From a virus: a DNA stretch of 64,000 nt. This document shows, piece by piece, positions 3,423 to 23,434 of this stretch (position 1 is the first letter of the stretch; every line of letters begins with the position of its first letter). A model generated the notes under the pieces. It saw nothing but the letters and a program-made list of their open reading frames with translations. It was not told the origin of the DNA and searched no databases. The stretch covers positions 1-64,000 of IMG/VR virus record IMGVR_UViG_3300044712_000336; one strand, 5' to 3'. The position numbers and the translations under genes were made by a program.

Positions 3423-5849
3423 TTAACTCTGTTTTTTCTTAGTTTTAGCCAATTCATTTTGTCTATCCAACTCATTTTGTTTTGCTTCAAAATCACGTTG
3501 TTTATCTGCCTCTTGTTGGTCAAATTTACGTTGTGCTTCTTTATCAGCATTAACAAGTTGTTGTTTTTCTAATTCTATATTATCTTCTATTCCATTATTA
3601 TTAGCATCTGTATAGAATTGTTTAAATGCTTCAGATTTGGCTTTATCTTGTAAATCCATTTGTTTAAGTTGCATATCATATTCAGCTTTAACTTTAATTT
3701 CTTCAAGTTTGAATTGATGTTCCATTTGTTTCATTTGTACTTGAACTCGTAATGCTTGCTGTTGTATTTGTACTTTCTGTTGTTCTATCTGTATACTTTC
3801 TTGACGTTTCCTTTCTTCAGCACTTTTTAATCCTTCTATCATAGAAGTAGGACTATGTGATAACATTAACATTGCAACATCGCTCAGATTAACAGTACCA
3901 CCTTGTACAGCTCTACTGATAATATCGGTTTTTAATAATGATTCAAGTTCAGCAACTTTAGTACTATTAGTTATCTGTACATCATAATCAGCTTCATTAA
4001 ATGTAGCACCATCAAACTCTAATAATGCTATTTGTGCATCATCTAATATTGCTTGTCTTAACTCTTTTTTATCCTTTAAACAATATTTAGCTACTTCTAA
4101 GAATCCCCGTAAAAACTCTATTTGAAATTCATCATGTAATCTAAATAACCATTCAGTTTGAGTTGCACTATATGATACAGCTTGTTGAGCATTACCTACT
4201 TGTTCATTAGGTGATATATTTCCTTGACGTTGTGGTGATATACCTGATAATCTACTAATCATATTTTCAAGATAATTTAGATATGTTAATATCTGTTCTA
4301 TCTCTTGTGCAGCAGACATATCAATATATGAATTACTACCTTGCATATTACCCGCTATATGACCTCTTCCGTCTTCTTGGAAAGAATTACGTAATGCTAC
4401 TCTATGTTTTCTTATGAAATTAAACCATCTTCTTACATCCCATTTTTCACCATCATCCATCATTCCATTAGGTATTGATGCTAAATCAATATTAGCTACT
4501 CTACCATAATTAGTAAGCCATAGATGTTTTAGTTTTTTAGCATATACAACATATTCATAAGCAAATGATTTAACTGTATCAATAATGGAAAATGCTTTAC
4601 CGTTATTTATATTACTAACTATTCCACGATACATAGGTTTACATTCTGCTGGATTAGTCATACTTCTAAATTGTACTGGATTAGGTTTAATATCAGTATA
4701 TATATTAGCACCTATCTTAACGCCAGACCACCATTCAGGTATCCATATCCATTCAATACTTTCACCTTTAGATTCATCTGCTTTATAAAACTCATGTACA
4801 TATTGCTGTTGTTCATTACCAAACTCATCAATATATTTTAATATACCAATTTTACGTTGGGACATCCATTGTACACGCAATACTAATATATTACCATTCT
4901 TATCAAACCATCCGAATCCAAATTGAGGAACGTCTAAATCATCAATAGGTAATAATACATTAGGTAAATCTTCATAATTAGCAATCATAGTACCTCTCGA
5001 TCTAACAATATAATTACTATATTCTTCCAACTCTTTAATTTGAGTAAAGGTTAGATTCCTAAACTCTCTTAATATAGTACCCATATTATAATATTCCCAA
5101 TGTAATATCATAGTGGAATCTTCTATTCTATTACTTTGACCATTACCTTTATATAATACTTGCATAGGATTACATTTTAACCAATAAGGCTCACCATTAG
5201 CAATTCCTAACATTGCTATTTCTTCAGCACCAATAACTAAATCTTTATAACAATTACTACTAAAGTTTTTCCATCTCAATCTTTCCATATAATGTTGAAG
5301 AACATTATTAGCTAATTTCTCATGGACAGTTTGTACACCATATTGTTTCCATTTAATTAACTCTTCGATTTCTTTTTGTAACTCTTCATCATTGATTTGT
5401 TCTGCTTGCATTTTCTGTATAAGAAATTGAGATATTCTTTCCCGTATAATTCTTTCCTTCATGGAAACAGCTTCAGCATTTGTTACATAAGCACGTGGAT
5501 CAAAACTACGTTTTAATTGTTCACCTACTAATGTATCTAATACATTCTTTAATACAGCTAATCCATCAGTTTCATCAAATAAATCCTTAACATCATTATC
5601 ATAATCATCATCATCTAATAACATTGGATTTAGTTGCCTTGCTATTTTCTTTGGATCATACTTCCCTAATACTATATTATAATTCTCTATCTTATCTTGT
5701 TTAGATTTTCTTATTAAATCATGCGAGAATAATACACGATTAATAGTACCATCTATACTATCCTTCTGCCATTTCAAACCACGTTTAGTGTTATCACTAA
5801 CTAACTGTGATGGAAATTCAGCATCTACCCTGAATGGATAATTGTCCAT
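3423..5849 (-). CDS. Portal protein
   Basis: 808 aa next to TerL; WIWIPEWWSGVKIG and SGISPQRQG segments typical of crAss-like portals; Q-rich coiled-coil C-terminus. Confidence 0.88.
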   Translation of the reverse strand: MDNYPFRVDAEFPSQLVSDNTKRGLKWQKDSIDGTINRVLFSHDLIRKSKQDKIENYNIVLGKYDPKKIARQLNPMLLDDDDYDNDVKDLFDETDGLAVLKNVLDTLVGEQLKRSFDPRAYVTNAEAVSMKERIIRERISQFLIQKMQAEQINDEELQKEIEELIKWKQYGVQTVHEKLANNVLQHYMERLRWKNFSSNCYKDLVIGAEEIAMLGIANGEPYWLKCNPMQVLYKGNGQSNRIEDSTMILHWEYYNMGTILREFRNLTFTQIKELEEYSNYIVRSRGTMIANYEDLPNVLLPIDDLDVPQFGFGWFDKNGNILVLRVQWMSQRKIGILKYIDEFGNEQQQYVHEFYKADESKGESIEWIWIPEWWSGVKIGANIYTDIKPNPVQFRSMTNPAECKPMYRGIVSNINNGKAFSIIDTVKSFAYEYVVYAKKLKHLWLTNYGRVANIDLASIPNGMMDDGEKWDVRRWFNFIRKHRVALRNSFQEDGRGHIAGNMQGSNSYIDMSAAQEIEQILTYLNYLENMISRLSGISPQRQGNISPNEQVGNAQQAVSYSATQTEWLFRLHDEFQIEFLRGFLEVAKYCLKDKKELRQAILDDAQIALLEFDGATFNEADYDVQITNSTKVAELESLLKTDIISRAVQGGTVNLSDVAMLMLSHSPTSMIEGLKSAEERKRQESIQIEQQKVQIQQQALRVQVQMKQMEHQFKLEEIKVKAEYDMQLKQMDLQDKAKSEAFKQFYTDANNNGIEDNIELEKQQLVNADKEAQRKFDQQEADKQRDFEAKQNELDRQNELAKTKKKQS

Positions 5850-6014: not shown

Positions 6015-8198
6015 TTAATCCAATGAAATTCTATGACGTTTTCTTCCCTTACCTAACATTCTTACCCATTCCATATCACTTACAATTGGATTAATTCTAC
6101 TAGTATCTTTTGTTACCTCTACTTTTATACATTCTTCCATGTATAATAGTGTATAACCAAAAGCATCAACACGGTCAAAGTTACCTTCCTTAATCCAATC
6201 TTTTAATTCCTGTAGTAATGCAATTCCTCTTATCCTATGAGTTCTTGTTAAATTTTCCTTTACATTATTTTTATCATCTTCGTCTGTTTCATCTTCTATT
6301 ATATCCAATGGTTCGGCCATATATGATTGTATTAACTTCCTACACCACGCTTTAACTTGTCCTTGACTATCTGATTTAATACCTTTATTATTAGCTAATC
6401 CTTTATAGTTAAATTTATCTTTCCATAACTCTGGTGTATTAGCTAATAAATGCACACTATTCATACGTTCAAAGTATCGGAATAAACCTACTAAGTTTGC
6501 TTCAAATAATGTTTGGCATTTATAATATAATAATAACCTACGTAATTGTTCATAGTATGTATTAACATCAGAAGGTCTTCCTGTATATTCAGCTACAATA
6601 CGTTTTGTTACTCTATTCATAACAAATGTACTTGCTAATGAGAATGTATCACCAACATCATCTCTTCCCAAATCTACAGGGTCAGTACCAGCTACATATA
6701 ACATATCAGGTATTTTACCATTTTTATCCATATATACATCTTCATATAATATAATACAACCGTCTGGTTTCTTATCTTTTGTTGGAAAATCTAATAATGG
6801 AATAGCATTATCATCTTCTTTAAAGAAGACATTTCCTTTACCATCTATATTCATAAAACCATATCTTTCTGTATTCCTATACATAGGATTGGTTTTAAGT
6901 TCTGCTAATTGTTCACCTATTAATTTAATATCAAATGGGGATCCTTCAACTTTCATAACAGCTTCCTCTATATTTAGAGGATGTTCTGCCATTTGTTGTC
7001 TTAGCATTGATGGATCTCGTTTTAAAACTTCTCTATTTATTACTTCTGTTTGTATTGCAGGAATAATATTAGTATTACCATTTATATCAGTAAATCCTTT
7101 TTTATTTACATAATCTGGTACTACATAACATACTTTTTGGTTTATCCTACCTTTTTCCCATATATTAGGGATACCATATATATTAAATAATTCAGGATCT
7201 CTTGTTAATTTTTCTAAACCAGCAAATCCTTCACCTATTTCACCACCTGTTCCAAAGGTAATCATAGTACCAAATACCTCACCGTCTTCTTCAACTGAAG
7301 ATCTAGCAATTTGCCAAGATTCTTTTAATATTGGGTTACTACCAGATTCTTCCCATACTATTAATTTACCTCTAATACCACGAGATTTATTAGGATCACC
7401 ACCTAATGATATACCTATTATTTCACTCTTATAACCACTTTCTATTACTTTTCCACCGTCTAAATATTCTTTAAATGATGCTCTCCTATTTTCAGCAATA
7501 TCTTTATATTGTCTTCTTTTAAACCATTCAGTATGTTCATCAACAAAAGACATGTGATCACTAACTTTTGTCAATATAGCATCTTTCTTAGTTAAGAACC
7601 CCCAATCATTAGCTATTGCATAACTTTTACTTTCTGGTATTAAATAAAAATTACGTGTCATCATACTAGCAGCTTTAAATGAATATCCCTTACCACGGGA
7701 TTTAATACATCCACAATGTTGCCCCCTTTTTTCTGCTTCTTCTACATAATGAAACCAATAATAATCACCATCATAAATTAATGGAAAATCGGATCTTCTT
7801 TCTGCTCTAACTTTTCCAGTTATACTATTTTTAGAGATTTCTTTAGATTGTAAAATAGGTGTATAGTTCCAATACCAGTATAAATAACCAGGTATATAAT
7901 CATATCCAGTATGATAACCATTAACACATCTATCTTGTTCTCTCTGCCAAAATTTAATATATGATGAACTACTATTTAAGTTTACAGTAGCTTGTGTGTA
8001 TTTACCTAATTCTTGAAACTCTTGTCTTACTGCTATAAATTCATCCATATTAGTTAATAGTTTTCCATTACAGAAATGATCTATTAACTTATACTCATAA
8101 GTATCACTTGTATATTCTAATCCTGTATTATTATCAAGTGGTATATCTACATTAAATTGTATTATATTCTCAGGAAGTTGTATTAGTTTTTGTTCCAT
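6015..8198 (-). CDS. terL: Terminase large subunit
   Basis: Walker A KSRGKGYS, Walker B LIVWEESG, FGTGG coupling motif, nuclease AGTDPVD and GNFDRVDA; no intron or intein seen. Confidence 0.92.
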   Translation of the reverse strand: MEQKLIQLPENIIQFNVDIPLDNNTGLEYTSDTYEYKLIDHFCNGKLLTNMDEFIAVRQEFQELGKYTQATVNLNSSSSYIKFWQREQDRCVNGYHTGYDYIPGYLYWYWNYTPILQSKEISKNSITGKVRAERRSDFPLIYDGDYYWFHYVEEAEKRGQHCGCIKSRGKGYSFKAASMMTRNFYLIPESKSYAIANDWGFLTKKDAILTKVSDHMSFVDEHTEWFKRRQYKDIAENRRASFKEYLDGGKVIESGYKSEIIGISLGGDPNKSRGIRGKLIVWEESGSNPILKESWQIARSSVEEDGEVFGTMITFGTGGEIGEGFAGLEKLTRDPELFNIYGIPNIWEKGRINQKVCYVVPDYVNKKGFTDINGNTNIIPAIQTEVINREVLKRDPSMLRQQMAEHPLNIEEAVMKVEGSPFDIKLIGEQLAELKTNPMYRNTERYGFMNIDGKGNVFFKEDDNAIPLLDFPTKDKKPDGCIILYEDVYMDKNGKIPDMLYVAGTDPVDLGRDDVGDTFSLASTFVMNRVTKRIVAEYTGRPSDVNTYYEQLRRLLLYYKCQTLFEANLVGLFRYFERMNSVHLLANTPELWKDKFNYKGLANNKGIKSDSQGQVKAWCRKLIQSYMAEPLDIIEDETDEDDKNNVKENLTRTHRIRGIALLQELKDWIKEGNFDRVDAFGYTLLYMEECIKVEVTKDTSRINPIVSDMEWVRMLGKGRKRHRISLD

Positions 8199-10900: not shown

Positions 10901-11782
10901 CTATAACGTATTTAAAAATTTATACAATTCATAATTCCATTTAGCATCGGCTAAAGCGTTATGTTCATTAGTCTGTTTTGGGTAATTAGGTAATTTTTCT
11001 ATTTCAAATTTAGGAGGATTAATACTACCTTCTTTAATACCCTTTTTAACATAATCTTCTTCAATATCATGTTTATACTGTTGTAGGTCTAAGCAGTACA
11101 TAGGAAACCCTTTAGGTAAATCCATCATAGTTCCAAACAACTGACAAAATACTACCCAGTCGTAATCACTGTAATATCCATAAAATTCTATATTATGTCC
11201 TTCTGCTAAATCTATTCTTTCTTGTATAAATGTAGTTTCACTTACTTCTTCTTTAAACTTAATTATGTTTTCTATACGTAAAGGATTAACAAATTCAGTA
11301 ATCTCTTTAGCAATTTGTTTATTGGATTTACCGTATTTATTAAGTAATCTTTCTAAACTATTAATACAAAAATCTTTGCTAAGATATTCTATAACTTTAT
11401 TACTTGTTCCTATATAATCTGAATCTGTTTCACACAAATTGTGATGATATTCTTTAGTATGTTTACTTTTTAATTCCTTCCAAATAGGTTTCAATACATT
11501 CTCCCTAACCCATTCATTCTTCCATGCAGCTTTTAAGTTAAAGTCTTTTGATATTGCATAGTATTCTTTTGTTACTTGTGGTTTATTTGTAAATTTCATA
11601 CCATATTCTTTCATGTATTCAAATTGTTTTTCTAATGGTATCTTAGTTTCAGATTGTAACTCACCAACTATCCCTATACTAATTAAATCAACAGTAGGTT
11701 TAGTTTCACCATATTTAATTCCTAAGAAGGTTTTATCTTGTTTACCTTCAATGAACTCGCAATCCATGAAATATTTGCTCAT
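10901..11782 (-). CDS. DEDDh 3'-5' exonuclease/exoribonuclease (Rv2179c-like)
   Basis: ExoI FMDCEF, ExoII YYSDYDW, ExoIII HNALADA. Confidence 0.8.
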   Translation of the reverse strand: MSKYFMDCEFIEGKQDKTFLGIKYGETKPTVDLISIGIVGELQSETKIPLEKQFEYMKEYGMKFTNKPQVTKEYYAISKDFNLKAAWKNEWVRENVLKPIWKELKSKHTKEYHHNLCETDSDYIGTSNKVIEYLSKDFCINSLERLLNKYGKSNKQIAKEITEFVNPLRIENIIKFKEEVSETTFIQERIDLAEGHNIEFYGYYSDYDWVVFCQLFGTMMDLPKGFPMYCLDLQQYKHDIEEDYVKKGIKEGSINPPKFEIEKLPNYPKQTNEHNALADAKWNYELYKFLNTL

Positions 11783-12525
11783 ATTTTCTTTATATTAAAA
11801 TTATAAACTTTTATGTTATTTTTTAAAGCTCTGTTAATTAATCCTTGATTACAGTTTGTATTACCTATTGATTTTAAATATTCACAACACTCTACTTGAG
11901 AATGAAATTCTTTATAAAAGTCATCTTTTAATAGAGCGACTTTAACTGTGCCAAACTCCCTTTTTCTTCTATCTTTTAATGGTTCATTTGCATAACTCCA
12001 TCTATATCCTCCAGCACTAAAAACTTTACCTTTACAACATTGACTTATATTGCTTTTAGATTTTATATTAGTATAGTCTTGTGCTTCTGTAATAGAAGTA
12101 AAATCCTTAATAAATTCATTATTCAAAGAATACATATTAATTTTAATAGCACAATGATGGTTACCTTTTATAATCGTTCTAGTTTTAGAATCTTCAGGGT
12201 GTTTATAGCCTTGTAAGCTTCCTGCTATTAAACAACTATTATAATCAGTTCCTTTATTAATATAAAATTGTTCCATTAATAAAACATTTTCTTGATTGCA
12301 AATACATACTATTTCAAAAGTAAAATTCTCAAAACCATATTTTTTAAATGCTCTATGCAAAACTGGTTGAGTATTTAATTCTTTTTTAACAGCCGAACAA
12401 TATTGTATATATCTATGTCTAAAATTACTAGTAGTACTTCCGATATAAATTTTATTATTTATATTATTAGTAATAGAGTAAACTCCTATTTTCCTCCAAT
12501 TATCATTTTCTACTTTGAATATCAT
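11779..12525 (-). mobile_element. Free-standing GIY-YIG homing endonuclease with NUMOD-like C-terminal domains
   Basis: GVYSITNNINNKIYIGST...RHR, conserved E and N; FTSITEA...NISQCCKGK...SAGGYRW is NUMOD1-like. Confidence 0.88.
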
Positions 12526-16690: not shown

Positions 16691-17002
16691 TTCATTGATG
16701 GGAATTATGGTTTGTAATTTTTTAGTATAGTTGGTATGATGTATAATGTACTATATTAAGTAGTATAGGTAGTAAAAAATAATTTTTCCAAAATTTTTAT
16801 ATATTGAATAAATATAGTAAAATTTTTAATTTTTTTATATAAAACAAATATGTAGTACCATCCACACTCAAAACCACCTATACCTTTAGCATTGACACAT
16901 AGGGGGAGTACTGAATTGTGGTACATTATCATAAAACATATTACCCCTTTATATTGTCAAGCAAAATATGTGTTTAGTATTAATCCATTAAAAATAGAAA
17001 CA

Positions 17003-17662
17003 ATGGAATATTTACAAGATTTAAAAAATGTAGTGTTACCAAGTAACGCTATTTTCCAAGGTGTAATAGATAGTAACACTGGGAAATCTTTATCAAGTAA
17101 ATTGGCGTTTTTGCCAAGACTTGATGCTGAAAGTGTATTGTGTTTAGTAACAATTAACGGTGTTATCAGTGCGCCTGTTGATGTTAATACCCAAATGATG
17201 AACTGGTTATCAAAGGTAAAAAACAAACTTAATAACAAGTTTGCTAATATGATACCTGAGTATATTAAGGGTTCTGGTAGTGCTGTTTGGGCTCAATATT
17301 GCAGTAAAATTGAAGACGGTTATAATGGCTTACTTTCACAAAGTGAGAAAGACCAGTTGCCAAAACCAAGTGTAATCCGTGAAAGTATTTCTATACTTGG
17401 TGAACTTAAAAATGTACCGGAACCTGTAAAGATTTTAGGTATCACAAAAGTAGATGGACAAACTCTCTTACCAGTTCCTAAAACTCTTATTGAGGTAAAA
17501 GAGAGTGGCTGCACCCTTAAATTTGAAGTAGGTCAAACATTCAACATTCTTATTAAGAAAGTTGACAGTACAACCTATTTACAAATGGATTGTGTGCCGT
17601 TGACACCTGAACAAGTAACCAGTTTTAAAACTGTGAAAGTTCCTGAGAAAGTGGAAGCATAG
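17003..17662 (+). CDS. Hypothetical protein, first rightward gene (likely start ATG 17003)
   Basis: ATG preceded by A-rich leader AAAAATAGAAACA; followed by a strong hairpin. Confidence 0.65.
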   Translation: MEYLQDLKNVVLPSNAIFQGVIDSNTGKSLSSKLAFLPRLDAESVLCLVTINGVISAPVDVNTQMMNWLSKVKNKLNNKFANMIPEYIKGSGSAVWAQYCSKIEDGYNGLLSQSEKDQLPKPSVIRESISILGELKNVPEPVKILGITKVDGQTLLPVPKTLIEVKESGCTLKFEVGQTFNILIKKVDSTTYLQMDCVPLTPEQVTSFKTVKVPEKVEA

Positions 17663-17934
17663 TTTGTGTTAAGTTTAGATAGTGATAATGGGTAGTAACA
17701 TCCACCTATCACTATCTACTCTTAATATTTTATCTTATTATATTCACATACAACTAAGGCGAACTATAATTTTATATCCTTCGGAAATTCTGAGATTCTG
17801 ATAATTAGAATTGACATTAACTATAAATATCATTAAACATTTTTGTTTAGTATTATTTATCTTTCGGGAATAGTTATGGTTATCCTATGGATCAGTAATT
17901 TATCAAATTTCGGATATACAGGTCTTTTATTCTT

Positions 17935-18007
17935 TTATTATTTAATGCAGCTATATCCAAAAAGATATAAGAGTTACAAGCCTCTATAAATGCAGAGTAA
18001 GTAATAA
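17935..18007 (+). ncRNA. Twister ribozyme, type P1
   Basis: P1 TTATTAT/GTAATAA; TT^AA cleavage loop; P2 TGCA/TGCA; P3 TATATC/GATATA; P4 AGAG/CTCT; L4 TTACAAGC; pseudoknots GC/GC and TTAC/GTAA. Confidence 0.9.
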
Positions 18008-18309
18008 TAAGCACCTACTATTCCATACAGCATGATGGAGTATTATAAGCCTTTTCCCAGATTACAAGAGTAATTACTTGTAATGTAAGAATAGATTATC
18101 TAAATAAGAGAGTAATTAACTCAAATAGGATAATTGATGGATAATACGTGATTGTTCTACACATAGTAGTTGTTTTTAAAACAACTAAATGAAGTTGTAC
18201 CATTGGTTTGTATATTAAACTAAGCAGAAAATCTTAGTATAAATTAAAGTATCAAAGAACCTGAACTACAACAGTAAATGTAGTGTATTGTACTTACCCG
18301 AAGTATAAT

Positions 18310-18816
18310 ATGAGTAAAAATAGTGGTTTAAGGACTGCAAGGGATGATATTATGGCTAATATGTCAGCACAAATAGTACGTGAAATAGTTGCTTCTTCAC
18401 TTAAAATAAAAGCAACTAATGTTATTCTTAGCAGTGTATTACCTGAAAACTTCTGCGTTGAAGCAGTAAGTACATCAGGTTGTATGTATTCAAACTCTAA
18501 CGATTGTAGAGTTTGGGCATTTAATCCACAACAAGGATTGGTATTATTGCAGCAATCTGTTATTACAGAAAATGCTGCAAGTAATGCTAATGGTACTTGG
18601 GAAAACTCTTATGGATATACTTTTGAAATGCTTGCAGAACAAGCACCAGAAGCTATCTTCTTTGTAGTTATGGAAAGTTCAGATTACTCAGATTGTAATG
18701 GTAGAGATGAACATTCTATAAGTTATACATTATACAAAGCTCCAGACTTTAAAAGTCATTGGGCTAAAATCCAACAAGAAGCCATTGCTCGTTGGGAGCA
18801 ATGGTTGAACTCATAA
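18310..18816 (+). CDS. Hypothetical protein (start uncertain)
   Basis: Long ORF inside an otherwise non-coding region, followed by a hairpin at 18818-18853. Confidence 0.6.
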   Translation: MSKNSGLRTARDDIMANMSAQIVREIVASSLKIKATNVILSSVLPENFCVEAVSTSGCMYSNSNDCRVWAFNPQQGLVLLQQSVITENAASNANGTWENSYGYTFEMLAEQAPEAIFFVVMESSDYSDCNGRDEHSISYTLYKAPDFKSHWAKIQQEAIARWEQWLNS

Positions 18817-19011
18817 TCTAACAGGCATTTCTTAGGAATGTAAGACCTGTTAGTTTATAGTTAATATCATATATAATATCTTATAACAAAGTTGTATCTA
18901 ATCTTTGTTATAACTATCAGTAGATGTACTGATGTAGGCTATTTGGGTCAATAGCTGAAATGAATAGATAGTGGTGCATGACTGCTCAAACCAATTAAAC
19001 TTAAAAATAAA

Positions 19012-19092
19012 ATGATAATAGCATTTGTACTGTGTGCAGTAGGATTTGGTATAATAGTTATATCTAAATCTTCAAAAGTAAGAAATTACTAA
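19012..19092 (+). CDS. Small single-TM peptide (26 aa)
   Basis: MIIAFVLCAVGFGIIVISKSSKVRNY; strong A-rich leader like that of bona fide genes here. Confidence 0.45.
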   Translation: MIIAFVLCAVGFGIIVISKSSKVRNY

Positions 19093-19306
19093 TGTCTTAG
19101 GTATATACACATTTATTGGATAAATACCAATCATGTGTATGTCTTAAGGATAAACTAAAAGATGTTTAATTGAAAACAATATAAGTATTACAATATAAGA
19201 GGAAGAAGTCTATTGTTACATGCCGTGATAGGGCAAAAATACTATAATACTATCAAACCAAACTCAATAGAGCAACTCACAAATCTTTGAGTAATACTAA
19301 ACTTAT

Positions 19307-19810
19307 AGTAACAAGTAATAGAGTAATAAAGCAGAGGCAAAATGAATAAGTCCTAAAATGGTTGCCCGGAATAGTTGCTCAACTCGTGAGCCGACCACTG
19401 AGACTACAATTACTTGTTACTTACTTTTAATGATTGATACTACTTCTAATATGTACAATCTGGTATGGATGTAGTGCTTTAATTAGCCATCATAATCAAG
19501 TCAGATTATTAATCATTATTTAATACGATGATTGATATACAAACCCCCACTAAGTCCGTTTGGCGGTTTTAATACCCATGAATTGTCATGGAGTATATCA
19601 ATCGTTACATATAAAACAGTTAATAAAAGTGTCGGCATATATCAAGATCATACTTGTACCTAACTTGATATAGTATTATTAGGTGTTAACTGTTTTTAAC
19701 TTGAATTAATTACATCCTTAAAGGTTAAGAGCTTTACTTAATAAAAACTACATTAAATATTAGTAGTAATAAAAAAGTTCTGTATAGACTAAGAAATACA
19801 GTAAGGATGT
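19307..19810 (+). ncRNA. Array of five adjacent structured RNA modules, each closed by a 9-14 bp stem
   Basis: Terminal stems at 19307-19421, 19428-19518, 19527-19606, 19613-19696 and 19712-19810; spacers 6-15 nt; G-U pairs favour the plus strand. Confidence 0.65.
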
Positions 19811-19824
19811 TTAAGATATAAAAT

Positions 19825-19892
19825 GGACTATATCATAAGATTGATCACTTATGATATTGGAGAATATTGGTTCGAATCCAATTATAGTCCCA
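19825..19892 (+). ncRNA. Truncated tRNA-like element (acceptor stem + T arm + one hairpin)
   Basis: GGACTATA/TATAGTCC 8 bp stem; ATTGG-TTCGAAT-CCAAT T arm; TCATAAG/CTTATGA hairpin; no D arm. Confidence 0.65.
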
Positions 19893-19929
19893 ATAATAAA
19901 TCTAAAAGTAATAATTAAAACTTAAAGAA

Positions 19930-20550
19930 ATGAAAAAGAAATGTAAAGTAGTGAGGCTTCCTACAGAAAAAGCAACGTGGTCTAATTGTATTTGGTTAAG
20001 TAGAATTAATAATCAATTAAGATTAGATAAATCTTATAATATGTTACCCCAACATCTTTATATTATTTCAGACGATGAAGTTAAAGAAGGTGATTGGTTT
20101 ATCAATGAACAAATTGATGGAGATAAAGTTATTTGGCAACATAATGGAAATATTATACCTAATAGCAACCCTAAAAAGATTATCGCTACAACTGATAATA
20201 GTATTGGTATAAAACCATTTACCGTATTTCCTCAACCATCACCACAATTCATTCAAAAGTATATTGATGAATGGAATAAAGGTAATAAGATTGAATGGGT
20301 TAATTTGGAATATGAAGCTATTCCTAATGAATTTGATAATCCTTTTACTAATCCTAAAGGATTGGATAATTTTGAAGATGCTAAATGGGAACTCAAAGTT
20401 GACAAAAACAATTACATAACCCTTACTAAGATTAAGGATAACTGGAATAGAGAAGAAGTAATTCAATTACTTCAATCTTATAGAGAGTTTGTATGGGGAA
20501 ATGGTGCAACTCTATTTGATTGTACTAAATGGATTGAAGAAAATTTATAA
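19930..20550 (+). CDS. Hypothetical protein (KIIATT family, paralog of 21234-21674)
   Basis: Shares KIIATT...PQ motif with 21234-21674. Confidence 0.7.
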   Translation: MKKKCKVVRLPTEKATWSNCIWLSRINNQLRLDKSYNMLPQHLYIISDDEVKEGDWFINEQIDGDKVIWQHNGNIIPNSNPKKIIATTDNSIGIKPFTVFPQPSPQFIQKYIDEWNKGNKIEWVNLEYEAIPNEFDNPFTNPKGLDNFEDAKWELKVDKNNYITLTKIKDNWNREEVIQLLQSYREFVWGNGATLFDCTKWIEENL

Positions 20551-20554
20551 AATA

Positions 20555-20779
20555 TAAAGAATAACTAATGAGGTTATGGGTATTCTCTAAAGCGTGTACA
20601 AGAGAATCAAGGCTATTGGGGATAAACTGAACAAGGCATGATATGTCAGTAATCCGGTAATTAGTTATTCTTTACAATATAACAACTTAATGAAGAACAC
20701 ACTTACCTTAAATAAGTAAGAGAAGTTAGTGCAAGATACTTTAAGTATAAGCATGATAGTGAAATGTAATTAAGTTGTT
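20555..20779 (+). ncRNA. Two further stem-closed RNA modules
   Basis: 15 bp perfect stem closing 20555-20674 and 11 bp perfect stem closing 20681-20779. Confidence 0.6.
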
Positions 20780-20987
20780 TATTTATACGATATAGGACAG
20801 TATATATAATATACAATATTAAATTATACACAATATATCAAAGTATAGTTAATTTAATATAGGACAATTTATTTTGAATGATTATTTTAAGACATTTAGG
20901 TTGTGAAATCGAAGCGGATATGTAATACATTCAATAGAATGTTCCATTATTGGTTATATCGTATGTCAAATTTAAAAACTAATTGAA

Positions 20988-21221
20988 ATGCAAATTCTAA
21001 AAAATAAACAAAGAAACTCATTTATTATCATAGATAATTATATGGTAGTATTACACGCAGAATGTCATAGAGATGAAGGATTTATTGAATATTACCATAA
21101 AGATAGTGTTCATAATTGTCTTGAGGATATTAATGACTATGAAGAATGTAATAATACATTTGGAATAAGTCAAGTAATAGATACTATTATTACATTATTA
21201 ATTATTACTAATAAGATTTAA
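20988..21221 (+). CDS. Hypothetical protein
   Basis: ORF with A-rich leader. Confidence 0.55.
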   Translation: MQILKNKQRNSFIIIDNYMVVLHAECHRDEGFIEYYHKDSVHNCLEDINDYEECNNTFGISQVIDTIITLLIITNKI

Positions 21222-21233
21222 AAATTAAAAACA

Positions 21234-21674
21234 ATGCAAAAACTAATTAAAATATCAGACTATTACTATGTAGTAGATAATAAAGCTGAAATAGTACCAG
21301 AGATTACATGGTGTATTAATAAAAATGAAGATACATTATATATACCTAATTGTGGTACAAGCTCTACTGCTGAGTATTGGAATAAAATAATAGCAACAAC
21401 TAATCCTTCATTACCATTACCACAAATCACTAATGCAAGTGATGATATGGTAGGTAAAGAAGTTGAAGTTGAGTTTAAACCCCTAACATTAATAGATAGT
21501 TATATTTCTGAAATTGCTATTCTAAAACCTATTTCAAAAGGTTTAAGATTACCAGATGATGATATATTTGGAGTAGAAACTTCAATTAATGGAACATTAG
21601 AAGAAGTTGATAAAGAGTATAGTGAAGATGAAGTATTAGCGTTATGGAAACTTGTGATAACAAATCTTGTGTAA
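21234..21674 (+). CDS. Hypothetical protein (KIIATT family)
   Basis: KIIATTNPSLPLPQ. Confidence 0.65.
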   Translation: MQKLIKISDYYYVVDNKAEIVPEITWCINKNEDTLYIPNCGTSSTAEYWNKIIATTNPSLPLPQITNASDDMVGKEVEVEFKPLTLIDSYISEIAILKPISKGLRLPDDDIFGVETSINGTLEEVDKEYSEDEVLALWKLVITNLV

Positions 21675-21726
21675 CATGTACACTACGAGGTATATGTTTA
21701 GTTCGTAAACATTAAAACTAAATAAT

Positions 21727-21858
21727 ATGATAGCACCATCATTAACAGGAATAGTAATAATTACTATAATAGTAATAATTACTAAGAAGATAAGAAAAGT
21801 AAGTAAAAGTATTACAGGTGTAACAAGCATTTGTAAAATGTTGGATAACAAAAACTAA
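21727..21858 (+). CDS. Small single-TM peptide (43 aa)
   Basis: MIAPSLTGIVIITIIVIITKKIRK..., hydrophobic stretch then basic tail. Confidence 0.45.
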   Translation: MIAPSLTGIVIITIIVIITKKIRKVSKSITGVTSICKMLDNKN

Positions 21859-21872
21859 ACATAATAAATAGT

Positions 21873-21944
21873 TGGGTATGTGATGAGTAATTGGATAACC
21901 TTAATACGAAAGTATTGATATTGGTTCGAGGCTAAACCTATTCA
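21873..21944 (+). ncRNA. Degenerate tRNA-like element lacking an anticodon arm
   Basis: D-loop-like AGTAATTGGATAAC, GAAA-capped hairpin, TTGG-TTCGAGG-CTAA T arm, weak acceptor pairing. Confidence 0.35.
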
Positions 21945-22369
21945 CTAACAGTCATAATATTGAAAGATTTATGAGCTATTTATTATTATAAGATAAATTA
22001 TTCTATAATCCAATGAAGGAAATTGTAGAAATACAAGAAGGATACTCAAAAGGGATGCAGATAACCAAAGTCTTAGAAAGGTCTGTATAGAGTAATTTAA
22101 TATCATTCCATCATGGAAGAGATATATAAAACTAACTTGAAATAAACTAAAGACAAAGTGTTCTAAAGTTTAAACAATCTAAGTAAAGTTAGTGGTGGCA
22201 GCATATATTATAAAGAAATAAGTGAAATAATCATTAGATTTTTCATAGAGAACTTATCATTTTTATAATACTATGCCTTATTACTAGTAATAGTAATATA
22301 GTAGTTGTTATTATAACAACATTGTGCAGCGAGTTGATGACTTCGCAATATTAACTAATATCTGAACTC

Positions 22370-22528
22370 ATGGAAATATCATTTGCAATTCTGTTCATAT
22401 TGTTATGTGGACAGATATACTTCTATAAAGGAAGTAAAAGAGATAAACTTATTATTGGTGGATGTATAATAGGATTGATTATAATAACAATATTAAAGTC
22501 AATCTTAACATTCCATTATGTAATATAA
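22370..22528 (+). CDS. Small two-TM peptide (52 aa)
   Basis: MEISFAILFILLCG...KGSKRDK...IIGGCIIGLIIITIL. Confidence 0.5.
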   Translation: MEISFAILFILLCGQIYFYKGSKRDKLIIGGCIIGLIIITILKSILTFHYVI

Positions 22529-23019
22529 TATAAAGACTACCTGTAGGAACATTATAAATTAGTTTAACATCGTTTTTACACTTACAGGTAGAATCTTTTA
22601 ATATCATTATTGTAGGAATATGTTATTAAGTAATAAGTATTCCTATATTGGAAAAGTTATATATCAATGCTGGAATATAAGATAAATAATAATATCTGAT
22701 TATCAAGTAAAAGCATTTTTGCCAGTTATTATTAATTATAAAGTGTTGATAAACACTCCGTTTTGTAAAAACGGTGTCTTTATAATAAATAAATGATTTC
22801 TTAATATGCAAATTCTATGTATAATTATTTTTGTTATATATTTATACTCGATTTAAGACACTCAATTTTAATCTGGATAACTAATACTAATCCTTAAAAA
22901 TAATGTCTAAAATCAAACCAGACGATATAAAAATGGGTATTCTAATGTCCAGAAATTATCCATAAATTATCCATAAATGAAGGTTCAATCTTAACCTTCA
23001 CATTTTCAACATTTTAAAC

Positions 23020-23091
23020 TCGAAGCCTAATATTAATAGTTAATATGATGGTCTGCAATCCTAAGCCAATTGCACTGATGATGATAGCTTA
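23020..23091 (+). ncRNA. Type II hammerhead ribozyme (variant core)
   Basis: CGAAGCC...GGTC^ stem III; stem I TGCAAT/ATTGCA; CTGATGA core; loop I TAAGC pairs with 3' GCTTA (pseudoknot). Confidence 0.78.
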
Positions 23092-23119
23092 AAGTTAATA
23101 ACAATTAAAACATAATAAA

Positions 23120-23434
23120 ATGAATATAACTAATGTAAAAAGTGAATTATTAGAATTTCTAAAAGGTTTACCAAAAGTGAAATGTGCTACTATTTCCTAT
23201 AACATTGGTAATGGTATAAACCCAAAAGAAATTCTTTTAAAAGTAGGATATTCTGAATCTGAATATTCTGAATTTTTAAAGAATTTAGATTTTACTTATA
23301 ATGCAAGTCTTACTGGTGATTTATCCGGAACAATTTGGTTTGTAGATAATACCTGGTGTGAAAGAGAAGAATGTGATTATTCAGAGTGGTGGGAACATAA
23401 ATATTGCCCAGAAATACCAAAAGAGTTACAATAA
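23120..23434 (+). CDS. Hypothetical protein
   Basis: GTIWFVDNTWCER..WWEH..PEIP conserved-looking C-terminus. Confidence 0.7.
   Translation: MNITNVKSELLEFLKGLPKVKCATISYNIGNGINPKEILLKVGYSESEYSEFLKNLDFTYNASLTGDLSGTIWFVDNTWCEREECDYSEWWEHKYCPEIPKELQ

Follow-up and report, generated by a model that had tools for sequence, protein, structure and literature searches.

Does the intergenic DNA at positions 17935-18007 of an uncultured phage genome encode a self-cleaving ribozyme, and what would its cut do for the phage? The window that we analyzed is a stretch of 64,000 nucleotides, the first 64 kb of IMG/VR record IMGVR_UViG_3300044712_000336 (104,710 bp, with direct terminal repeats). Its large terminase, encoded on the minus strand at 6015-8198, shares about 36% identity with the terminases of many uncultured crAss-like phages, and the portal, DNA polymerase and several further genes match phage families; judged by these genes, the source genome is that of a 104.7-kb uncultured crAss-like phage. 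The window has a G+C content of about 26%, it gives long contiguous open reading frames (ORFs) in the standard code, and its coding strand changes from minus to plus at about 16.6-16.9 kb. (The leftward arm also holds an ORF for a homing endonuclease of the GIY-YIG/HNH type at 11779-12525, minus strand, which adjoins an RNase H-like gene at 10901-11782.) The class of ribozyme at issue, the twister, is said to have been described by Roth et al. in 2014. Our account, which we hold to be probably correct as a whole, is that 17935-18007 is a real twister that is transcribed in the rightward RNA, cuts between 17943 and 17944, and frees a structured 5' end of the downstream message. The fold, the conserved bases, the complementarity of the pseudoknots and the context in relatives were each established in silico.

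In a search with the Rfam twister-P1 covariance model (RF03160), plus-strand positions 17939-18003 aligned with the model from end to end (positions 1-68). The score was 54.9 bits, and the E value was 5.9e-13 for the genome, 1.5e-9 for the window and 1.4e-11 when 601 nt were searched. An earlier inspection, the sequence-only reading, had claimed a type-P1 twister here and had named such a cmsearch run as its check; the full-length match bears the claim out, though with a score below the gathering score of the family (67.2), which is an annotation cut-off and not a structural criterion of the class. Because the score falls below this cut-off, default annotation overlooks the twister, and a default Rfam search of the window indeed reported nothing. 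The shortfall arises from compensated AU-for-GC pairs, among them those of the T1 pseudoknot, which a covariance model cannot score as pairs and treats as single bases. In the full genome this is the single twister-P1 match and the sole recognized ribozyme, and no other Rfam ribozyme family gave a match at E ≤ 1. The parts of the element are as follows.

17935-18007, plus strand: type-P1 twister ribozyme, full P1 stem included; RF03160 match, with P1-P4 seen in the MFE fold
17935-17940 with 18002-18007, plus strand: P1; a U-G pair and a U-A pair can lengthen it as far as 17942/18000
17943-17944, plus strand: predicted scissile bond U17943/A17944, at model positions 5-6 (U-A)
17946-17949, plus strand: 5' strand of P2 (UGCA), pairing with 17991-17994 (UGCA); common to at least 131 IMG/VR twisters
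17950-17951, plus strand: 5' half of T2 (GC), pairing with G17980-C17981
17952-17969, plus strand: P3 hairpin of 6 bp (17952-17957 with 17964-17969), loop CAAAAA
17970-17985, plus strand: P4 stem AGAG/CUCU (17970-17973 with 17982-17985) with loop L4, UUACAAGC
17991-17999, plus strand: 3' strand of P2 (17991-17994), G17995, A17996 and the 3' strand of T1 (G17997-U17998-A17999)

All the helices of the twister consensus had been said to be able to form, and P1-P4 were confirmed by direct reading, by the covariance model and by the MFE fold. The helices follow in the order P1, P2, P3, P4 with both ends of the element in P1, no non-canonical pair was flagged in the alignment, and the MFE fold of the 73 nt reproduced all four at -12.8 kcal/mol (z -2.62), with 1 of 200 shuffles folding as well. 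The conserved unpaired bases are all present (U17943, A17944 and A17945; G17950 and C17951; G17973 and U17974; A17978-C17982; U17987-A17990; G17995 and A17996), and the conserved blocks U-A-A, GC, GU, AAGCC, UAAA and GA are intact. Departures from the consensus all lie within helices and are all compensated pairs, and nine of the nine P2, T1 and T2 pairs are formed. The element thus has in common with type-P1 twisters (RF03160) the helix order, both pseudoknots, the L1 and L4 bases, the U-A cut site and the G after P2. It differs from the consensus in being AT-rich, in having UAC/GUA rather than CCC/GGG as T1 and U-A rather than C-G as the first pair of P3, and in having AGAG/CUCU as P4. As far as sequence analysis goes, the identification of 17935-18007 as a genuine, complete type-P1 twister is supported.

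Loop L4 carries the 5' strand of T1 (17975-17977) and the 3' half of T2 (17980-17981). The sequence-only reading had given T2 as GC/GC, and G17950-C17951 does pair with G17980-C17981. It had given T1 as TTAC/GTAA, of which three pairs stand as UAC/GUA (U17975-A17976-C17977 with G17997-U17998-A17999), whereas the fourth, U17974-A18000, probably lies outside T1: in the solved twister structures three Watson-Crick pairs and one A-A pair make up T1, and the U that follows the conserved G is paired within an extended P4 (PMC5408937). Alignment to the Rfam consensus and the env22 numbering lead to the same predicted cut site (17943/17944) and the same predicted catalytic G (G17995) as had been named from the letters. 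By correspondence with env22, in whose numbering the roles of the residues are reviewed in PMC5408937, A17944 is the predicted general acid (counterpart of A6) and G17995 the predicted general base (counterpart of G48), with A17996 corresponding to A49. U17943-A17944 can alternatively pair with U17998-A17999, lengthening P1, as happens in the MFE fold; the extended P1 competes with T1, and cleavage may be slowed or gated by it.

The T1 of the window is AU-rich, with one G-C pair only, and the extended P1 rivals it in the MFE fold. Together with a score under the Rfam cut-off and a single copy in the genome, these features could suggest a true twister by descent that is by now a slow, gated or decaying copy of little use to the phage. 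We consider this unlikely. Every conserved base and pairing is intact, the nine P2, T1 and T2 pairs included, and decay in a genome of 26% G+C would soon erase the GC-containing core of a 65-nt element. The T1 variant itself also argues for maintenance. We compared six sub-threshold twisters (those of the window, L011 and L015, and three in L002; 30.9-54.9 bits), and in every one of them T1 is fully (100%) paired, each of its three pairs showing compensatory change across the set; 0 of 500 shuffles and no slid control was as good. A scan of IMG/VR for the P2 variant of the window (UGCA/UGCA) yielded at least 115 loci (L022-L136) with at least 131 twisters. Among the matches listed, T1 is fully complementary in 126 of the 131 and covaries, with nine perfectly paired sequence types; up to four twisters with a UGCA/UGCA P2 occur per locus, and none of the loci encodes relatives of the proteins of this phage. 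The exact UAC/GUA T1 is present in 11 of the 131 phage twisters, among the matches listed, and in L002, and the variant is therefore evidently maintained in nature, which tells against a decaying copy. With the same P2 and a complementary T1 recurring in IMG/VR, the window twister counts as an ordinary representative of the phage twisters. Their very large population is partly hidden by the Rfam cut-off, which conceals AT-rich members with a co-varied pseudoknot. In L002 (IMGVR_UViG_3300032007_000192), an unrelated phage of 39.7 kb and about 50% G+C, the three sub-threshold twister-P1 elements (10913-10964, 11869-11925 and 12372-12427) occupy successive gaps between small genes, and one of them has the UAC/GUA T1.

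That the element is no ribozyme at all, its likeness to a twister having arisen by chance in AT-rich non-coding DNA, strikes us as extremely unlikely. The score is under the Rfam curated cut-off, and the twister-P1 model does give sub-threshold matches at E ≤ 1 in 2 of 14 control genomes, but the E value in the window is 1.5e-9, the unscored T1 and T2 are both complementary, the strand and the intergenic position are right, and the T1 variant recurs in phage twisters.

Taking 17935-18007 as a real twister, we turn to the RNA in which it would lie. The element was said to be in non-coding DNA, and it does occupy a 689-nt gap between two conserved genes of the same strand, 276 nt past one and 348 nt ahead of the next. 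The surrounding features are these.

17003-17662, plus strand: upstream rightward gene, 219 aa, of no known family, with full-length homologues at 88% and 84% identity
17743-17770, plus strand: candidate sigma-70-like promoter (TTCACA, 16-nt spacer, TATAAT), 11/12 in a consensus scan, the best in the region
18008-18264, plus strand: hairpin-rich spacer from twister to leader (fold of 17944-18352, z -2.87)
18265-18351, plus strand: conserved structured leader of the 18352-18816 gene (alignment A3 of 10 loci; RNAalifold)
18265-18270 with 18279-18284, plus strand: leader hairpin 1
18285-18293 with 18303-18311, plus strand: leader hairpin 2
18312-18319, plus strand: conserved GAGUAAAA after the leader hairpins
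18352-18816, plus strand: downstream gene, 154 aa (listed ORF 18283-18816), starting at a conserved M-A-N-M-S-A

For the upstream ORF (16892-17662) the most likely start is the ATG at 17003. Its product has no Pfam, PHROG or phage match, and its full-length homologues mark it as a real gene. The twister is placed on the coding strand between plus-strand genes of what is presumably one transcribed unit. Both read-through from 17003-17662 and a local transcript start are possible: on the plus strand between 17662 and 17935 we found no terminator-like site, and the promoter at 17743-17770 is a candidate only, because sigma-70-like matches are not enriched over shuffles. In phage phi14:2 the middle promoters are sigma-70-like, and the early transcripts have no common upstream motif (10.1101/2020.03.07.982082). 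The sequence-only reading had set the ribozyme at the head of the rightward unit. A transcript start near 17743-17770 would agree with this, but the conserved gene 17003-17662 lies 5' of the twister, following the strand switch at about 16.6-16.9 kb, and the twister is therefore not quite at the head.

The absence of an intrinsic terminator past 17662 on the plus strand, with a ribozyme 276 nt after the gene, would also suit a different division of labor, in which the upstream RNA is the useful product. The ribozyme would then substitute for a terminator and give the 17003-17662 mRNA a defined 3' end bearing a 2',3'-cyclic phosphate, the downstream fragment being incidental; which fragment matters is left open by the reviews of phage ribozymes (PMC6765202, PMC8782182). 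We rate this as quite unlikely. In relatives the cutters track the downstream leader and gene and not the upstream gene, as set out below. Moreover, among the matches listed, 115 phage twisters lie a median of 37 nt before a same-strand ORF start and 109 lie a median of 89 nt after a same-strand ORF stop, distances that are rough since the ORFs were called mechanically.

Our preferred account gives the cut a role for the downstream message. The start of its gene is placed at 18352 because 38 homologues begin with M-A-N-M-S-A and because the DNA 5' of the ATG is conserved without a reading frame. The 38 proteins form a family of no known function; the product has no Pfam or PHROG match, and a search of a protein atlas gave no usable match. 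Its AlphaFold model (pLDDT 87.8) comprises an N-terminal helix and an Ig-like beta sandwich, for which Foldseek found nothing in the PDB at E ≤ 0.001; with VIA-align the top matches were generic Ig-like sandwiches, at a Z of no more than 5.4, which is not informative. The next gene, 19930-20550, is a homologue of g004 of phi14:2, a phage in which the surroundings of g004 show abundant early transcription in the rightward direction (10.1101/2020.03.07.982082). By analogy with this neighbor, early expression of the region is plausible here as well.

The DNA ahead of the ATG proved to be conserved as structure. All relatives have a non-coding leader, about 90-110 nt long, ahead of the ATG; in it a pair of neighboring hairpins leads into a conserved (C/U)AUGAGUAAAA. 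In alignment A3, 97.1% of the cells are paired and 10 of 14 pairs show compensatory change, with 0 of 500 shuffles and no slid control comparable; three unpaired cells in the row of the window reflect a six-column MAFFT shift, and read directly hairpin 1 pairs perfectly. The leader has no Rfam match, it is present once in the window, and its counterpart in L007 lies at L007:4945-5042. On the strength of the covariation we regard it as a candidate new cis-regulatory RNA motif. Two other assignments were tried and rejected. As a general promoter the leader failed, since its motifs occur once in the window and are no commoner than in shuffles. Hairpin 2 has a CCGAA loop in four loci, which brought to mind coremin / xrRNA_C, but the loop sequence is not conserved across the family, and coremin calls for a YGAD tetraloop on a 3-bp hairpin together with a conserved 10-nt spacer (PMC6546385), features that the leader lacks. 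In the window, 257-261 nt separate the twister from leader hairpin 1, and a blastn comparison of the spacer with all the loci found no relatives of anything upstream of 18248.

What precedes the leader in other phages? The closest homologues of the flanking proteins are at 60-88% protein identity. Scans of IMG/VR with three neighboring proteins singly gave no relatives, a scan of genome contigs gave none, and two flanking proteins had no match by tblastn among deposited phages. Relatives were obtained by profile-based scans: L007 and L020 come from IMG/VR and L008-L016 from metagenomes, L007 and L008 being identical across the compared upstream stretch and the start of the gene. The following elements were recognized around their leaders.

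L007/L008: pistol ribozyme upstream of the leader, 63.7 bits (cut-off 34.5)
L015: twister-P1 abutting the leader, 45.8 bits
L011: type III hammerhead match upstream of the leader, 32.6 bits and below cut-off; a further twister past the gene
L014, 1440-1532: tRNA-like cloverleaf immediately upstream of the leader; acceptor stem of 7 bp, T loop UUCGAUU, terminal ACCA
L016, 259-303: acceptor/T-arm minihelix immediately upstream of the leader

Neither ARAGORN nor Rfam (at E ≤ 1) called the tRNA-like elements of L014 and L016. We recognized no cutter upstream of the leader in L009, L010 or L012/L013, and L020 gave no clear assignment there. The records behind L007 and L020 and that of Cellulophaga phage phi14:2 have no twister-P1 match. 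(In L011, at 413-898 and 2687-2764, the homologue of the downstream gene appears split into several ORFs in the standard code, and ARAGORN called an odd tRNA with a four-base anticodon (aaca) nearby; L011 may use a different code or have a frameshifted assembly.)

What stands at the equivalent place in more distant relatives varies: pistol, twister, hammerhead-like motif and tRNA-like element all occur, and some loci show nothing recognized. The cutters hold their position relative to the downstream leader and gene, some 5 to 35 nt from leader hairpin 1, while the upstream gene differs or is absent. Because different cutters fill the same place, the selected property appears to be a cut upstream of the leader and not the twister as such; the comparison suggests that selection keeps the cut itself rather than a particular class of ribozyme. 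The link between twister and leader is weaker in the window, with 257-261 nt between them as compared with about 5 to 35 nt in the relatives. The distance from the leader, and the several relatives in which no cutter was recognized, are points in favor of the slow or decaying copy considered above, to be set against the intact core and the recurrent T1.

Meanwhile, the region further downstream bears on a reading in which two ribozymes bracket an RNA locus of 5 kb (17935-23091), the twister at one end and a hammerhead at 23020-23091 closing the other, and the locus is excised with a mostly non-coding cargo. The tract from 17.9 to 23.1 kb does have long ORF-free stretches and holds a tRNA-like element at 19826-19890, and the comparable region of phi14:2 yields abundant early non-coding RNA (10.1101/2020.03.07.982082). 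The closing ribozyme, a type II hammerhead that a companion note to the sequence-only reading had placed at 23020-23091 on the plus strand, did not hold up: a 301-nt search (22900-23200) gave no match to an Rfam hammerhead family at E ≤ 10, the whole window gave none at E ≤ 1, and the proposed core has a G at the nearly invariant A15.1. In addition, the tract contains at least two conserved protein genes, 18352-18816 (38 homologues) and 19930-20550 (the homologue of phi14:2 g004). We judge excision of such a locus to be highly unlikely.

We return to the account in which the twister cut serves the 18352-18816 message, for which we infer transcription, cleavage and an effect on RNA stability or translation as follows. 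The twister RNA would be made by read-through from 17003-17662 or from a start near 17775, and the rightward RNA would fold during synthesis into P1-P4 and the two pseudoknots. It would cleave itself between U17943 and A17944; the general base would be G17995 and the general acid A17944. A 2',3'-cyclic phosphate would terminate the upstream fragment, which in the case of read-through would be the RNA of 17003-17662. The downstream fragment would begin with a 5'-hydroxyl at A17944 and keep the folded ribozyme body at its 5' end. After the ribozyme body would come the hairpin-rich spacer, the two-hairpin leader (18265-18319) and the gene (18352-18816). The cut would uncouple the downstream message from the upstream RNA and give it a defined, structured 5' end, which should be without the 5' phosphates that are sensed by 5'-end-dependent RNases. 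The phage could benefit from the uncoupling, from a message shielded against 5'-end-dependent decay, or from a free 5' end that the leader needs. A cut that defines the 5' end of the downstream RNA, as the sequence-only reading would have it, fits the elements found at the equivalent place in relatives. Such a role is in line with how bacterial and phage ribozymes are generally seen: in the reviews, bacterial twister, hammerhead, pistol and related ribozymes are found near phage genes, and a role in the processing of polycistronic RNA has been proposed (PMC6765202, PMC8782182).

The twister class, its presence near phage genes and the swapping of ribozyme classes in similar contexts are already known. 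[quoted passage not shown] It differs in lying in an unusually long spacer and, in contrast to the ribozyme arrays of phages and prophages, in being a single copy, whereas L002 has three twisters in successive gaps. The theta (HDV-like) ribozymes of gut phages are described as adjacent to viral tRNAs and involved in tRNA-based recoding (PMC10879173). They are likewise small self-cleaving phage ribozymes for RNA end formation, and in our loci, too, tRNA-like elements and ribozymes appear interchangeable upstream of the one leader. The window twister is unlike them in its class and in not being beside a tRNA, and its phage reads well in the standard code. In fungal and plant RNA viruses, hammerhead, twister and HDV-like ribozymes occur in the 5' UTR and enable translation, self-cleavage itself being useful (PMC13725137). 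Those ribozymes belong to eukaryotic RNA viruses and to cap-independent translation (PMC13725137); ours belongs to a DNA phage of bacteria. Our search of the literature found no report linking self-cleaving ribozymes with crAss-like phages.

With this element a crAss-like phage gains a clean twister, which taken singly is otherwise an ordinary ribozyme. The part worth following is the leader with its variable cutters. About 10 related loci, in which one conserved leader is preceded by four kinds of RNA-cutting element, amount to a natural experiment on the purpose of phage and bacterial ribozymes, and the comparative picture points to 5'-end definition of a particular message rather than to a property of one ribozyme class. 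More tentatively, and with doubt outweighing belief on our part, we raise the possibility that the 18352-18816 family is served by an undescribed two-hairpin leader that needs a freshly cut 5' end, and that phages plug in any cutter that will supply one (twister, pistol, hammerhead, or a tRNA-like substrate of RNase P/Z). If this were true, the twister would serve as an exchangeable component of a new cis-acting RNA device that expresses or stabilizes an early message of crAss-like phages.

Finally, we note two tRNA-related elements, one in this phage and one in phi14:2. In the window, the tRNA-like element at 19826-19890 (plus strand) lies directly 5' of 19930-20550 and combines a long acceptor stem with a T arm, GGUUCGAAUCC, that is perfect, one hairpin replacing the D and anticodon arms (fold z -2.65); it scores 26.3 bits with the Rfam tRNA model (cut-off 29) and is negative by ARAGORN. 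In phi14:2 (L003, NC_021806.1), ARAGORN calls a tmRNA at 4031-4500 (plus strand) with the tag peptide GSSVQKLAMVA*, which Rfam scores at 46.0 bits (cut-off 47; E 5e-16). The site lies before g006, where small ORF features have been removed from the record and no RNA gene is listed, and by gene order it corresponds to the region of abundant early non-coding RNA of unknown function (10.1101/2020.03.07.982082).
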